Source: Verrucomicrobiota bacterium (GTDB lineage Bacteria > Verrucomicrobiota > Verrucomicrobiia > Opitutales > Cerasicoccaceae). Taken from it: a DNA stretch of 64,000 nucleotides. Position 1 is the stretch's first letter, and each line of letters starts with the position of its first letter. The position numbers were made by a program, and so were the translations under genes. Positions 1 through 5,249 of this stretch are shown piece by piece. Under the pieces are notes generated by a model. The model saw only the letters and a program-made list of their open reading frames with translations, searched no databases and was not told the DNA's origin. The stretch covers positions 1-64,000 of the forward strand of contig JBCBUK010000002.1 in NCBI GenBank assembly GCA_039818205.1. Direction: 5' to 3'.

Positions 1-59
1 AACGATGAGGATGAGCGCGGGGGCCGCATGGCTCCGTTGCTCACTCCGGCTGGTTCGGT
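1..59 (-). mobile_element. Integron attC recombination site (truncated at window edge)
   Basis: Minus strand reads ACCGAAC-CAGCC-GGAGTGAGC-AACGGAGCCATGCGGCCCCCGC-GCTCATCC-TCATC-GTT. This gives an R'' box, a 5-bp spacer, L''/L' boxes that pair with one extrahelical base, a central hairpin, a 5-bp spacer and the GTT of R'. It starts immediately after the stop codon of the 60..326 ORF. Confidence 0.85.
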
Positions 60-326
60 CTAGATTTGTTTGTATATGTATTGGAGTAGGACGAATCCGG
101 ACACCAGACCTACTGCTATCCCTAATGGCACTGAATAGATTCTTCTTTTTCGCTTAAATGCGATTCCACCCAAAAAGGAAATTGATGCTGTCGTGAGGTA
201 AAAAAGAAATAGACCGAATGCTGTTTCTGGGAAATATTCTGTTCCGGTCACGCAAAGCGTCCAAATCAACTGTAGCAAAAGACAGGTAAATCCGGCAGCG
301 ATTCCGTTTCCTATCCTTTGTTTCAT
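60..326 (-). CDS. Integron cassette ORF, small membrane protein (about 88 aa, three hydrophobic segments)
   Basis: ORF track 60..341; the ATG at 326 (MKQRIGNG) is preferred over a GTG inside the core site. It is flanked by GTTCGGT (340-346) and the complementary ACCGAAC (53-59). Confidence 0.7.
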   Translation of the reverse strand: MKQRIGNGIAAGFTCLLLQLIWTLCVTGTEYFPETAFGLFLFYLTTASISFLGGIAFKRKRRIYSVPLGIAVGLVSGFVLLQYIYKQI

Positions 327-339
327 TTTTATTTCTTTC

Positions 340-362
340 ACCGAACAGGTTAGTATAGGCGC
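340..362 (-). mobile_element. attI-like primary integration site
   Basis: Minus strand GCGCCTATACTAACCT-G^TTCGGT: a core site exactly complementary to the cassette R'' box, preceded by a degenerate inverted L box, with no attC hairpin. Confidence 0.55.
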
Positions 363-416
363 ACGATGCGATTGTTACGGGTTTTGTGACTGGTTCGTGT
401 TGGGCGCATGGAACTG

Positions 417-446
417 ACCATAAATATTCCCTAACCGACTCGGCAA
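417..446 (-). promoter_or_regulatory. Possible Pc-like sigma70 promoter pointing into the cassette array
   Basis: Minus strand TTGCCG-N18-TATGGT, about 70 bp upstream of the attI-like site. Confidence 0.3.
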
Positions 447-624
447 CACTATTTTGTGATTGCCTGTTACAATATAAACTCATTTTTGGTTTTCGGACCA
501 TCAACCCTCCCAAAATGGCCAAGAAACCTCGCAATACACAGGGATTGCGGGCGATTGGGGTGGCGCGTATATCAAAACCAGCAAACACAACACCAGAGAT
601 CCAGTCTCAACTTACTAACAAGCC

Positions 625-1041
625 TCACACCACCACCGACGGCTCTCCGTAGAAAGGCACGTGGGCAACCTCCCCAGCGCTGTTATACTGCTTAGCGACG
701 TCAAAGACCTGAACCTCCGGCGGATTCATGTAGACGCCGCGTTCCTCAAGCTGGCGGGCTCGCCATTCGCAGGCCAATCGACAGGCTTCGACATCGCCAT
801 GTTTAATGACCGAGAAGCATTTCGACTCACCCGGGCCGGTTCCTCTACCGACGCAGGCTTGCCAATAGTGATAGCTTTGTTTCTGCATCCGCCGAACGCC
901 TAGAACTTTGCCGTCCTCGTTGAACCATTTCCCGCGAACGGGTCGACCACCGGAACGCTTTAGGACCCTCAGCCGGTCTTTCGATGGGTGCCTAAGCTCG
1001 GACTTTATGCGCCTATGATGGATTTCGAAGTCCGTGAACAC
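625..1041 (-). CDS. Stand-alone AP2-domain DNA-binding protein
   Basis: GVRR..YWQACV..KCFSVIKHGDVEACRLACEWR matches the AP2 pattern GV..W.A..K.FSv.k.G..eA..lA...R. No HNH motif. GTG start directly abuts the upstream TGA. Confidence 0.6.
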   Translation of the reverse strand: MFTDFEIHHRRIKSELRHPSKDRLRVLKRSGGRPVRGKWFNEDGKVLGVRRMQKQSYHYWQACVGRGTGPGESKCFSVIKHGDVEACRLACEWRARQLEERGVYMNPPEVQVFDVAKQYNSAGEVAHVPFYGEPSVVV

Positions 1042-2130
1042 TCAATCAGTTGATTCGAACGAAAGGTGTGGGCCTTCTTCATCCCATCTGAAGCCAAATA
1101 TCCTTTTGATGTCATCAGCTTCTGCATCGCCCAATATTCTTCTGATTATCTCTAAATCCTTCTCTTGTTCTGTTTCCGAATCTCCGAATCCATGCCAATT
1201 CTCGTTCCACGCATCTTTCTGGTATCGCTTGTAGTCTTCTATTAACATCCAGTCTCGAACTAGTCCATACATGGTAGTCCTTGCATCTAGTTCCTTAAAT
1301 GCTGTCGAATAATCATTATGAATGATGTCTTGCAGTTCGCTTAGCTTTGTGACTCCGAACCTTTGTAGTTCTCCAACTAGTTCTTCTAGGCTTGGTTTGG
1401 CAAAAGCTTCCCCAATTACTATTTCATTGTTTTTCGCCCAATTTTTGAGAAACGCTTCGAGGCTAATGCTATCGATAGCTATGTTCAGGTGACCTTCCTT
1501 AGCAGAATGTTCTACTTGCTTTGAGTACTCATCAATCTGCTCTACAAGGTTATCAAAACCTTTGTCCGCAAGCTCTAGCATTCCGGAATAAAGAAATAGT
1601 TCTCTCTCCAAATTCTTTGGAAGTTTGCCTCGGAATTTGTAATTTCGGTCGTGAGCTAATTCTGCCCATGCATGTTGCAAAACCGTTCTGACTTGAATTT
1701 CAAATTTTAGATCTGCGATCTCTGAATACTCAGCCAACTCTTTCCTTTTTGTCCCAAGGCTACAAACATAGTGGACGGAACGATACCCAAACTCGTTGAC
1801 GGAGAGCATTTGCTCCTTGTTGAGACTATTCGACTCGTCGATCGTTAGCCAATCTTCAAGGCGAGAACAAACTGCTGCTACCTGTGACTCAAAATAGGTT
1901 ACGACTCTAATTCCTGAGATATCAGTCATTTGCGCCGAAATATCCGCATAGTTCTTTCGACGGACCTTCTCTTCAATTGACTCTGATTTTTTGGTCCGCC
2001 CTTCAACTGTCAAAAAGTCGATTTCGCTGTTTTTCAGCAAGTTTTCTATTATGTTACGGACTGTTGAGGTGAGTCGTTTATATCTTGGAAGCTCATTCGA
2101 GATCCAATTTTGGGTCGATTCCTTAGTCAT
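1042..2130 (-). CDS. RelA/SpoT-domain small alarmone synthetase with C-terminal extension
   Basis: All synthetase motifs present: GRTKKSESIEEK, DISGIRV, GYRSVHY, EIQVRT, QHAWAELAH. No HD hydrolase or TGS/ACT domains. Confidence 0.88.
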   Translation of the reverse strand: MTKESTQNWISNELPRYKRLTSTVRNIIENLLKNSEIDFLTVEGRTKKSESIEEKVRRKNYADISAQMTDISGIRVVTYFESQVAAVCSRLEDWLTIDESNSLNKEQMLSVNEFGYRSVHYVCSLGTKRKELAEYSEIADLKFEIQVRTVLQHAWAELAHDRNYKFRGKLPKNLERELFLYSGMLELADKGFDNLVEQIDEYSKQVEHSAKEGHLNIAIDSISLEAFLKNWAKNNEIVIGEAFAKPSLEELVGELQRFGVTKLSELQDIIHNDYSTAFKELDARTTMYGLVRDWMLIEDYKRYQKDAWNENWHGFGDSETEQEKDLEIIRRILGDAEADDIKRIFGFRWDEEGPHLSFESTD

Positions 2131-2292
2131 TCTCGCGGTGTGCTGAATGTGATTTCAATTTATCAATAAATGGTGATAATTATGGAAGGCTTTCGCCAAG
2201 AATCAAGCATCCTAATTTAGTTCATAGAGGTTCTCTTGTTGCCAACATTTCGTTTTGTCTCATCAGGTGGACATTGGTTGGTTGGGAGTTTG

Positions 2293-2310
2293 TCTTAACT
2301 GATCTTAACT
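2293..2310 (+). repeat. Tandem direct repeat TCTTAACT x2 (10-bp period), possible integrase arm site
   Basis: tcttaact at 2293-2300 and 2303-2310, about 40 bp inside the putative attR. Confidence 0.35.
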
Positions 2311-2348
2311 AAATCCGCGGAATCCCTGATGAATACTGGACTAGAAAT

Positions 2349-2368
2349 GAATCCCGCCCTCTCCGCCA
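2349..2368 (+). mobile_element. Duplicated tRNA-Ser 3' end; putative attR boundary of a genomic island
   Basis: GAATCCCGCCCTCTCCGCCA is a T-loop remainder, T-stem, acceptor stem, discriminator G and CCA typical of tRNA-Ser. The preceding sequence cannot form the tRNA 5' half. Confidence 0.75.
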
Positions 2369-2786
2369 ATCTGTAAAATATTGCCTGACAGCTACTTGGG
2401 CGTTCTGGGCTTCGTCCGGATAAGGACATGAAAGGCAGATTGGTGCGTCTAAGCGAGTGGAAAACTGCAAATTTGCCATTCTTGATTGGCAAATCCATAT
2501 ATCTCGTTTTTCGCAAACTCCGGTAGTTTGGGTTGCTCGCTTGTCGGATTGGATGTAAAGTTGCTTTAGGAATACAACACTGGCCGCCGGAGCATTGGTC
2601 TACTTGATGACTTGTGTCGTCATGATATTATTCAGCTAAATTTACTTGGCTACGTATTTATTCGTCGTAGACCGAATGCTATTATTCATATGTCCGGCCC
2701 GACCAAAATTGTAGAGAAACTCGGTGAGGTTTTGTCGTTTGGCGGTGGTATAGAAGTGAACTTTCATTTAATCTTCTACCAGCAAC

Positions 2787-5249
2787 ATGAACTCAATATC
2801 CGACGAACAACTCCTCAGAGCGATTGCTGACTCTGCCTGCCCAGACAGTCTACAGATACTGCTTGAGCGATATCGAACTCTAGTTGAGCGGATTTCGCGG
2901 ACAGTTTTGTGTGAGCATCAGGATATCGAAGATGTTCGGCAAGAGGTGTTTATCCAGCTACAACGCAAGGCATCCTCAATATTAGTGGATGACTCGCTCG
3001 CTCCATGGCTCTATCGGGTTACTCGTCAAACTGCTTTGAATTATCTTAGGGCTCGGCAACGGCGGGAAAGTCGTTGGGCCCGTTATGGAGAAACCGAAGT
3101 TCTCATTGGAAAAGGGGCAAACATTCCGGATAAAGAGTTATTATGTCGCGAGCTGGCCGAGCTCTTAGATGGGTGCCTGGAGGAACTCGAAGACGAAAAT
3201 CGCGATTTAATAGTGAGGCACTACTGGAATGGACAAAGTGTAACCGAGATTGCTGAGCAGTTTGAGATCCGGCCTGACTCCGTTTCGATGCGATTGATTC
3301 GAGCGAGAAAGCAATTGAAGAAGCTTGTTGTGACGGCAGGCATCGGGTCGAGCGCTTTGACAAGTTACGCAGAGATGCTCTCAGACGATTCGAGTATGTT
3401 TGGCGCCGATTTGTCTAGCTTGCTAGAGGAAAGCATTTCTCCGGTAGCATCTTCCGCCAGCGGTATTGGCTCAACTGGAGTTAGCTGGGTCTCAATGGCA
3501 ATTGCCAGGCCCGTTGTTTTGTTGTTGGCGTCGGTTGGTGCTGCCACGATTGCGGCATTGCTCGTAAGTAATAGTAGAGCGGTTGAGAGCTCGGGTGATG
3601 TTGCAAGGAGCCCGTCGACTGCAGTTTCTCTGGAAGAACCGATGGTCGCCCGGCAGGGTGCCCATCCAATCGATGTGCTCGCCAAACAGATGAAAGAGGA
3701 GCCTTACGGGCTGTCCCACCGGCGTGAATCATTTGTTCCGGTTTTGAGGAAGATCGACGCATTTATCGAAGACTACGGTGTCGACCTCCTGTATACGAGT
3801 GACGGGCAGCACCTGTTGCACGTCGCATCAAGTGTTCATGCGGATGAAATTGTCGCATTCTTGTTACTCCGTGGAGTGGATCCGGACGTCGAAGACAACC
3901 TTGGTCAGACAGCTTTATTTTATGTTGCCGGGAAGGGATTTACGAGGGCAAAAATTATTCGGGACCTACTTTGCTTTGCCGAAGCGGATGTCGACCACCG
4001 CAGCACGGAAAGCAAGACGCCGATCATGGTTGCTGCCGAGAACGGCCTCTCTGAGAACATCGAGTTTTTGGGTTGGTTGGGGGCATCGCTTTATCCGCGT
4101 GATGTACCCATTGAGCTAATGCCATCGGTGCTAGCGTTGAACAATGGTCACGAGGATCTGTATGAGCTTCTTCTGAAGTATGAGAATACTCCGCCACCAA
4201 CTTTGAATGATGAGCCCACCGAGATTCCAGATTTCATTCAAAATAGTTTTATTGAAGCAGCGAGAGTCGCAGATTTTTATCAGTTGGACGAGTTGCTTGC
4301 AGATGGTGCTGATATCGACGGGCGTGATGAGTCCGGAACAACCGCCCTATTGCGGGCCATTAGGGCACTGCAGCCGGAGGTGGTTTCCTACCTGCTGTTT
4401 ATGGGGGCGGATCCAAACATCGGATATCTTAATGGAAGTCCACCCTTGAGCAACTGCATGGGTTGGCATGGGAAAAATCCTGATTGGATGCGGGCGATGC
4501 TGCTTCTTGCTGGAGCTGATGTTGACCATATCCGAAACGACGGCCACACGGCGCTAACCCGGGCGATCCGGAGAGAGAATACGCATGGTGTTCAATGGTG
4601 TATCCTTTACGGAGCTGATCCCGATGAGGAGACTGAAATGGGGACTGCGATGCACTATGCGAGTAAGCGAAGTGCTCAGCGTATTGTTGATATTCTGTCT
4701 TGGAATGGCGTGACCGAGGAGCCTTATTCCAGTGATGACCCCAATTGGCTTTTGTTTGATGCCGTGAAGCGTGGCGATCAGGATTCGATCCATCGCATCT
4801 TGGAGGACCAAGAAGCCTCAATTGATCAACTTAACGATCAGGGTTGGTCGCCGTTGATTGCCGCTATTCATTCGCATCGATACGATACTGCCCGAAAGCT
4901 GTTGGAACTAGGTTCCGGTATTAATTATCAGTCCAGTACCGGAGCGACACCACTGTATGCTACCTGTGGTTGGAATAGCCGGTCGGTGAATCAGTTTCGA
5001 CAGGAGTTGATTGATGCAGGAGCGGATATCGAATTGCCAAACCACCGCGGTGAAACACCCTTAATGAGGGCTTGTAAGCATGGTCGTTTTTATGAGGGGG
5101 GATCAGTCGATCAAATCATAAAAGCTGGGGCCAATCTGTACGCAAAAGATGATCAGGGCCGCACCGCGCTAGACTGGGCAAAAGAGAGTGGGCGAACCGG
5201 AGCCTATAATCATCTGCTTGAGATCATGGAGTCTGGCGAAGATCGGTAG
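2787..5249 (+). CDS. ECF sigma-70 factor fused through a transmembrane segment to a long ankyrin-repeat domain
   Basis: Sigma2 (DIEDVRQEVFIQL..PWLYRVTRQTALNYLR), sigma4 (SVTEIAEQFEIRPDSVSMRLIRARKQL), hydrophobic VVLLLASVGAATIAALLV, then many ankyrin motifs (GQTALFYVA, KTPIMVAA, GTTALLRA, GWSPLIAA, GETPLMRA, GRTALDWA). Confidence 0.88.
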   Translation: MNSISDEQLLRAIADSACPDSLQILLERYRTLVERISRTVLCEHQDIEDVRQEVFIQLQRKASSILVDDSLAPWLYRVTRQTALNYLRARQRRESRWARYGETEVLIGKGANIPDKELLCRELAELLDGCLEELEDENRDLIVRHYWNGQSVTEIAEQFEIRPDSVSMRLIRARKQLKKLVVTAGIGSSALTSYAEMLSDDSSMFGADLSSLLEESISPVASSASGIGSTGVSWVSMAIARPVVLLLASVGAATIAALLVSNSRAVESSGDVARSPSTAVSLEEPMVARQGAHPIDVLAKQMKEEPYGLSHRRESFVPVLRKIDAFIEDYGVDLLYTSDGQHLLHVASSVHADEIVAFLLLRGVDPDVEDNLGQTALFYVAGKGFTRAKIIRDLLCFAEADVDHRSTESKTPIMVAAENGLSENIEFLGWLGASLYPRDVPIELMPSVLALNNGHEDLYELLLKYENTPPPTLNDEPTEIPDFIQNSFIEAARVADFYQLDELLADGADIDGRDESGTTALLRAIRALQPEVVSYLLFMGADPNIGYLNGSPPLSNCMGWHGKNPDWMRAMLLLAGADVDHIRNDGHTALTRAIRRENTHGVQWCILYGADPDEETEMGTAMHYASKRSAQRIVDILSWNGVTEEPYSSDDPNWLLFDAVKRGDQDSIHRILEDQEASIDQLNDQGWSPLIAAIHSHRYDTARKLLELGSGINYQSSTGATPLYATCGWNSRSVNQFRQELIDAGADIELPNHRGETPLMRACKHGRFYEGGSVDQIIKAGANLYAKDDQGRTALDWAKESGRTGAYNHLLEIMESGEDR

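Follow-up and report, generated by a model that had tools for sequence, protein, structure and literature searches.

In a Verrucomicrobiota genome of 4.85 Mb (G000), the stretch of 64,000 nucleotides that begins contig C2 (the window) carries a synthetase gene whose TGA stop codon (1042-1044, minus strand) directly abuts, in frame, the GTG of a 138-codon ORF (625-1041, minus strand) with an AP2-like sequence, and the locus raises the question of whether the two form a functional unit. The preliminary description of this DNA had proposed them as a candidate new two-gene toxin-antitoxin or defence module. What it had observed largely holds, including the stop-start contact, and the module that it proposed does not. 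The features on which our reading is based are collected in Table 1.

Table 1. Features at the start of the window, with their positions in it, strand and supporting evidence.
Feature	Position	Strand	Evidence
Small alarmone synthetase gene, 362 aa, MixRel-type, stand-alone cargo	1042..2130	-	ORF, PF04607, homologues, subfamily motifs
Synthetase domain, aa 1-170, motifs intact	1621..2130	-	alignment; model pLDDT 88; nearest solved folds RelQ/RelP/Rel
Long linker helix, aa 172-211	1498..1617	-	DSSP on predicted model
Conserved acidic helical C-terminal domain, aa 213-345, candidate brake/sensor	1096..1494	-	separate model, charge, family-wide presence
3' remnant of HNH-AP2 gene: linker, AP2 domain (~757-900), tail, stop	625..972	-	homology to G002 and C5 copies
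23 open codons from the GTG, unrelated to the HNH-AP2 family; probably the 3' flank of the synthetase gene up to the junction	973..1041	-
20-bp copy of the tRNA-Ser(GCT) 3' end; probable attR of an integrative element	2349..2368	+
Dispersed repeat of ~270 bp; probably an integron attI/promoter region (attI being an inferred name)	340..610	.
93-aa hydrophobic ORF, probable integron cassette, then attC-like site	60..341	-
attC-like repeat at the contig junction common to C14 and C45	1..63	-	attC model built partly from this site

Positions 581-3000 are spanned, with one difference, by one contig of one DNA run, which may be the source sample; a flank present in that run was not found in the assembly. 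No RNA run was listed for this locus. Scanning the locus for promoters and terminators yielded chance-level numbers (5 vs 3.9 and 3 vs 3.1, respectively).

A small alarmone synthetase and its subfamily

The synthetase ORF is as it had been described, with all motifs intact and no HD domain, according to a PF04607 match and the alignment of homologues. The match covers residues 44-167 (E 6.6e-20; 71.9 bits against a cut-off of 27), nothing else scores above cut-off, and the C-terminal ~150 residues have no Pfam, NCBIfam or PADLOC match. When the protein was aligned with its 119 best matches, residues R45, K47, K55, R58, D70, R75, Y116, H120, E144, Q146, R148, H160, Y164, and K165 were invariant in 120 of 120 sequences. 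A SYNTH domain with intact motifs and without HD, TGS, or ACT domains places the protein among the small alarmone synthetases of the RSH superfamily, and the motifs suggest that it is an active pyrophosphotransferase. Its near-length homologues number 1254, and the best 120 share 44-53% identity across 81-100% of the length. In the full-length model (pLDDT 88, pTM 0.65), a helix of 40 residues follows the synthetase domain and leads to a helical C-terminal domain; the nearest solved folds of the synthetase are Rel, RelP, and RelQ, with CapRel ranking after them.

Host listings and signature motifs, rather than subfamily HMM scores, indicate that the protein fits the MixRel subfamily. MixRel[S] is the extra synthetase listed in Dataset S2 of PMC7229694 for all five homologue-host names located in the portion available, a match at the level of genomes and not of proteins (three were the same strain, one had no strain given, and one was another strain). 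For one further homologue species, represented by another strain, that portion lists no MixRel. The Syn4 signature QHAWAE occurs 17 times in the accessible part of Dataset S5, in 11 actRel and 6 mixRel rows and in no other subfamily there. By eye, the 12 mixRel rows inspected in that part resemble the synthetase, and the 13 gRel places inspected differ from it in their Syn2-Syn4 patterns. ActRel, represented by RelS of Corynebacterium glutamicum, likewise joins a synthetase to a C-terminal extension and has the same Syn4 signature, but is actinobacterial; RelS is presented as an ordinary alarmone synthetase in the available text of PMC5566576.

MixRel was named as a small alarmone synthetase subfamily by Jimmy et al. 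in 2020 (PMC7229694), with no function described in the accessible text, and an excerpt of 10.1101/575399 calls it paraphyletic. In the literature searched, we found no activity, toxicity, or phage test of any MixRel, the mentions being non-functional. A literature search on PDC-S33, the PADLOC match of the synthetase, which is confined to its catalytic part, and on descriptions of single-gene defence returned nothing on this family. The synthetase is a new addition to this subfamily, which is already named but uncharacterised. It differs from other MixRel proteins in that no other RSH gene was found in its host. Separately, several Verrucomicrobial matches (L108-L115, in G511, G376, G372, G352, G695, G499, and G603) sit in frames of 840-1040 aa that are long fusions of a related synthetase domain.

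The AP2-like ORF and the integrative element

The ORF downstream of the synthetase had been taken for a stand-alone AP2 gene. It does match AP2, weakly (PF00847, E 0.032, 15 bits, under the cut-off of 33.3), but its stand-alone status was not upheld, as codons 24-138 belong to an HNH-AP2 gene, of which they comprise linker, AP2 domain, and tail. A search of 16 genomes of the family located two relatives. One, in a genome of the same genus (G002:C29:4577-5188), is an intact frame of 204 aa with HNH_3 (E 0.026) and AP2 (E 3.6e-6) matches, the latter backing the weak AP2 match in the window; the window ORF aligns with it at 38% identity over 127 columns and has the same C-terminus, its AP2 core and natural stop being intact. 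The other, on contig C5 of the host genome (G000:C5:76079-76474), has an HNH motif (E 0.0027) and stops before AP2. The end of this HNH-only ORF is identical to window positions 904-972 in 60 of 69 nt, compared with only 21 of 69 (ungapped) in the 69 nt upstream, and the edge of the shared patch falls inside the window ORF. Since the C5 copy shares this patch and ends before AP2, the two represent the 5' half (C5) and the 3' half (window) of one HNH-AP2 gene type. The 23 codons of the patch show 4 synonymous and 5 non-synonymous changes, a number uninformative on selection.

The frames of the G002 and C5 copies include an upstream HNH motif that the window ORF lacks; with homing-endonuclease-like HNH-AP2 genes this ORF shares the linker, AP2 domain, and tail but not the N-terminal region. 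Its first 23 codons have no significant similarity to the HNH-AP2 family (shuffle fractions 0.09 and 0.44). An HRRI-like match within these codons was considered and discarded as not significant. With this query, G002 alone provided an intact HNH-AP2 gene among 301 genomes of the order, and the protein database provided none beyond itself. The two ORFs also contrast in composition (GC 41.6% and GC3 0.41 for the synthetase; GC 57.1% and GC3 0.65 for the AP2-like ORF): the remnant is backbone-like, close to the element integrase (GC3 0.63), and the synthetase is cargo-like, as is a TIR gene (GC3 0.33, GC 39%). Decay of this kind is documented for Xanthomonas phages, whose HNH-AP2 genes are present in intact form or reduced to HNH or to AP2 (PMC2248197, in the part available). 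Judged by homology, the window ORF is a truncated HNH-AP2 gene, a remnant rather than an intact member, and it is very probably a bystander without function. Decay alone does not account for a TGA-GTG contact that is exact and in frame, nor for an AP2 frame that has stayed open as far as its natural stop.

The locus would form the right-hand end of an integrative element, small and decayed, that had inserted at tRNA-Ser(GCT). Window positions 2349-2368 are identical to the 3' end of that tRNA gene at G000:C14:3742-3761, and the central 14-mer occurs only at these two places. C14 has, starting at the tRNA, an integrase along with small ORFs and a TIR gene; the end of this contig overlaps window positions 1-77. 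The end of C45, a contig with an integrase fragment, Rep, HTH, and RHH, overlaps the same positions. It is ambiguous which of the two is contiguous with the window, since a second flank seems to exist for the 93-aa cassette; if C14 adjoins it directly, the element measures ~6 kb. A comparable element of G002 at tRNA-Arg contains, in order, an integrase, RHH, HTH, a G2P-type Rep, small ORFs, HNH-AP2, then convergent cargo and attR, where RHH, HTH, and Rep were named through their C45 counterparts or by inspection. Under this reading, the low-GC MixRel gene would have been gained as single-gene cargo beside attR, and a rearrangement would then have set it against the 3' half of the HNH-AP2 backbone gene.

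Several observations concern these elements and their surroundings. They form a family of small tRNA-targeting integrative elements with a tyrosine integrase, RHH, HTH, and a G2P-type rolling-circle Rep, many copies of which are decayed (G002:C29:1900-10044; G000 C5, C7, C14, C16, C42, C45, C48, and the end of C2). The 288-aa coiled-coil and TIR cassette at G000:C14:95-961 (L001), a full-length PADLOC match to PDC-S66 (E 2e-106), probably belongs to the same element as the synthetase; a tRNA-Arg element carries an AbiJ_NTD5 and TIR cassette (G000:C5:77326-78303, L004) plus a DUF6882 cassette. Seven tRNA genes at G000:C16:13079-14107, including an Asn(ATT) call, duplicate tRNAs found elsewhere, as is typical of a mobile element. 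Just outside attR, positions 2787-5249 (plus strand) encode a protein of 820 aa in which an ECF-type sigma factor is joined to many ankyrin repeats.

The repeat at 340-610 has copies at 70-93% on C16, C1, C39, C9, and C5 (G000 C1:92171, C16:101233, C39:5330, C9:209832, C5:99463). They head several separate cassette-like arrays with attC-like spacers, mostly away from any integron integrase and some in tRNA-linked elements, and one copy lies at the end of a contig that connects to another contig end, on which there is an integron-integrase fragment; on these grounds we infer an attI/promoter copy in the window. No attC-like site was detected beside the synthetase at E<=5 with a sequence-only model from 12 local sites, which found one site outside its training set.

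Neighbourhoods, phage carriage, and host background

The proposed module, with the AP2 protein as antitoxin, repressor, or sensor, predicts that the pair recurs. We examined 255 loci, comprising the best 80 of 569 genome loci, 69 viral loci, the best 80 of 529 metagenome loci, 18 Verrucomicrobial loci, and 8 from the Vibrio family, and in none of them did we detect an AP2-like ORF near the synthetase; the outcome that the preliminary description had itself named as refuting the module, homologous synthetases without AP2 neighbours, thus applied to the loci examined. An AP2 profile built from two sequences recovered both of its controls and no further match in 98 loci (next E 0.57), and nothing in this whole set of 255 (best 80 of 569 genome and best 80 of 529 metagenome loci included) when run with default filters and no positive control. 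None of 100 downstream neighbours had PF00847 at E<=0.01, a threshold that misses the window ORF itself. In 50 whole genomes from the 80 genome loci, two weak AP2 matches appeared, neither of them near the synthetase: the first was on a different contig and the second 88 kb or more away.

A local recruitment of the AP2 ORF could nevertheless be imagined, in which the truncated ORF is a translationally coupled antitoxin or DNA-sensing activator whose basic AP2 domain binds to the acidic C-terminal domain of the synthetase, as a nucleoid protein does to Pag1B in PANGU, the precedent for a DNA-binding activator according to the available text on that system. The exact in-frame stop-start contact, the AP2 core and natural stop kept intact relative to the G002 gene, and the acidity of the C-terminal domain agree with this idea, but the pair does not recur in the 255 loci, the ORF originates as an HNH-AP2 fragment, the relatives of the synthetase live partnerless, and the database has a single homologue of the ORF, an identical 87-aa call whose start at an internal ATG leaves out the first AP2 strand. 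We regard recruitment as highly improbable, and the synthetase-AP2 pair as a module is to be dropped.

No other partner took its place. Across the 251 loci with the ORF (best 80 of 569 genome and best 80 of 529 metagenome loci included), the recurrent neighbours were phage core genes on the flanks, a few housekeeping genes where the hosts are related, and, in 4 loci, an ORF of HD type. A close same-strand downstream ORF was present in 15 of the 96 loci that had a C-terminal domain and room for one, with no recurring partner family, and the conserved adjacent antitoxin gene of the bicistronic toxSAS (FaRel, FaRel2, PhRel, PhRel2, CapRel) was not encountered in the loci examined. The HD-type ORF (L225, L269, L271, L275), hydrolase-like by inspection, is directly downstream on the same strand, and these four relatives may represent a synthetase-hydrolase pair in one branch.

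At 90% identity the 69 viral loci fall into 58 clusters, and at 60% into 35. The phage-borne synthetase is often a lone gene, on the strand opposite to the majority in 40 of 68 loci. It occupies the P2 gpA-portal slot (L143) and a slot beside the P2 tail-fibre genes (L128/L129), both of them defence hotspots in the accessible parts of published work (PMC9122126, 10.1101/2024.10.15.618418), as well as the P2 gpS-gpV gap (9 loci of one lineage), prophage edges beside the integrase (L136-138, L145), and positions between HNH and small terminase genes or near Zot-family genes. Its spread is patchy: it is found in none of 5 other members of the genus, in 19 of 401 genomes of the class, and in 8 of 251 genomes from a family centred on Vibrio. 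Only distant relatives are present on plasmids (7 records) and in cultured phages (3 records). Among 67 non-viral loci, 11 of 150 neighbours match PADLOC at E<=1e-8, a figure that has no baseline, and about six loci look truly defensive.

In the host genome, which is 99.97% complete, the synthetase is the only PF04607 match; searches of this genome for PF13328 (hydrolase) and PF04245 (YejK-like) returned no match, the latter with a control that matched in E. coli. PF04607 is absent from 14 of 15 other genomes of the family, and the lineage is reported to lack long RSH (PMC3153485, in the text available).

These data bear on a housekeeping-type role, in which the protein would be a low-activity, stress-regulated source of (pp)pGpp like RelS, RelP/RelQ, or Tde-SAS, carried on mobile DNA for stress survival or lysogen dormancy and not for phage killing; the AP2 ORF would still be a remnant. 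RelQ and RelP are the closest solved structures, the Syn4 signature is common to the synthetase and ActRel, many chromosomal relatives sit among housekeeping genes, which make up many of the non-phage neighbours, and the PADLOC neighbourhood is weak. We nonetheless consider such a role rather unlikely, given that it would have to operate in a lineage without stringent-response enzymes and in a genome where no hydrolase was found, and given the repeated insertion of the single gene in prophage hotspots.

The C-terminal domain and a proposed mode of action

The extension that had been called unassigned is a trait of the whole family. The domain was detectable in 196 of 219 full-length relatives (102 + 94), with no match to a reversed control, and a search with it returned 142 representatives; of 32 checked, 26 carry RelA_SpoT, and no Pfam family was matched in the remaining 6. 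The domain is dispensable in part of the family, because about two dozen shorter relatives lack it, such as Halanaerobium proteins of 211-219 aa. Modelled separately, it is all-helical (pLDDT 92.7, pTM 0.88), and residues 213-362 have a net charge of -15, the same as the family mean. The best structural match in 48,161 chains was not clear (Z 4.2), viral structures gave none at E<=0.001, and the Atlas gave only a relative. The model therefore has no recognised fold, an absence of matches that does not prove a new one. An HNH origin or a read-through fusion was discarded as the source of this tail, with no significant similarity found (shuffle fractions 0.10 and 0.59). In one protein (P0158), the domain stands alone behind a lipoprotein-like signal, and in two synthetases (P0153, P0172) it is tandem-duplicated.

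The whole model that we favour, with somewhat more confidence than doubt, is that of a decayed-element end with a bystander remnant and a self-restrained, probably defensive single-gene (pp)pGpp synthetase. The N-terminal domain, working without a partner, would transfer pyrophosphate from ATP. The acceptor is quite probably GTP/GDP and the product (pp)pGpp, as suggested by the closeness to RelP, RelQ, and ActRel and by an N-terminal helix without an invariant basic patch (best K/R frequency 0.61).

The substrate is not certain from sequence, and we weighed against this reading a CapRel-like fused toxin whose target is tRNA, which it would pyrophosphorylate, or else a synthetase of (pp)pApp; in both the C-terminal domain would serve as antitoxin in cis. 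CapRel SJ46 is likewise a fused toxSAS, a single polypeptide on mobile elements with a C-terminal control domain (PMC9712102, PMC11782079, as far as their text is available); the overall logic is the same, the size is similar, and CapRel 7ZTB aligns structurally over 171 residues (Z 12.2, rmsd 4.3). Yet no CapRel is found in the sequence matches, in structure it ranks under RelP, RelQ, and Rel, and the all-helical C-terminal model is unmatched to the CapRel zinc-finger-like domain. No CapRel chain is among the 50 structural matches listed for that model, although absence from the list does not exclude likeness. The accessible part of PMC11782079 assigns tRNA recognition to the N-terminal region, and tRNA targeting is not indicated for the synthetase, whose N-terminal helix lacks the invariant basic residue. 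A CapRel-like toxin is accordingly improbable.

In the favoured model of a self-restrained (pp)pGpp synthetase, the long helix would link the synthetase domain to the conserved acidic domain, which on balance we expect to hold the enzyme off, either in cis or via self-association. Such a brake is suggested by the lack of a partner gene in a host without a hydrolase: with neither antitoxin nor hydrolase, the enzyme should be off or very weak by default. It also has precedents in Tde-SAS and, in outline, Pag1B. Tde-SAS (DsRel) has a comparable C-terminal extension, described in the available text of PMC10434055 as a brake in a host without long RSH, but has a TPR domain and a companion hydrolase. 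Pag1B/GRel of PANGU type I (bioRxiv 10.64898/2026.04.06.716658) likewise has a synthetase domain, a helical linker, and an acidic C-terminal domain, and in the accessible portion of that report is inactive until triggered and makes (pp)pGpp. The subfamily signature of our synthetase is, by eye and within the rows available, not GRel-type, and the YejK-like gene that PANGU type I needs next to it, as stated in that portion, is found neither in the window genome nor as a recurrent neighbour in the loci examined (best 80 of 569 genome and best 80 of 529 metagenome loci included).

The trigger may be phage infection sensed by the C-terminal domain, upon which alarmone would build up, NTPs would be drained, and the infected cell would stop growing, a proposal to which we give slightly less than even credence. 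The fallback of the preliminary description, a mobile-element synthetase with a self-restraining extension and a defence role, is thus the favoured reading, with its mechanism deduced, and the synthetase is a reasonable candidate for single-gene defence.

The remaining lead is a widespread, named, and unstudied subfamily with a conserved domain of unrecognised fold that travels alone in prophage defence hotspots, here in a host in which no means of removing the product of the synthetase was found. We tentatively suggest, as a conjecture that is more doubtful than the model for this locus, that MixRel may be an undescribed cross-phylum one-gene antiviral system, held off by its acidic domain until a phage product or a displaced nucleic-acid-binding protein arrives and then releasing a flood of alarmone. 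It would need no antitoxin, hydrolase, or host stringent response, and would work even in Verrucomicrobia without RelA/SpoT. If true, this would add a third mode of toxSAS control to the cis antitoxin of CapRel and the separate activator of PANGU.
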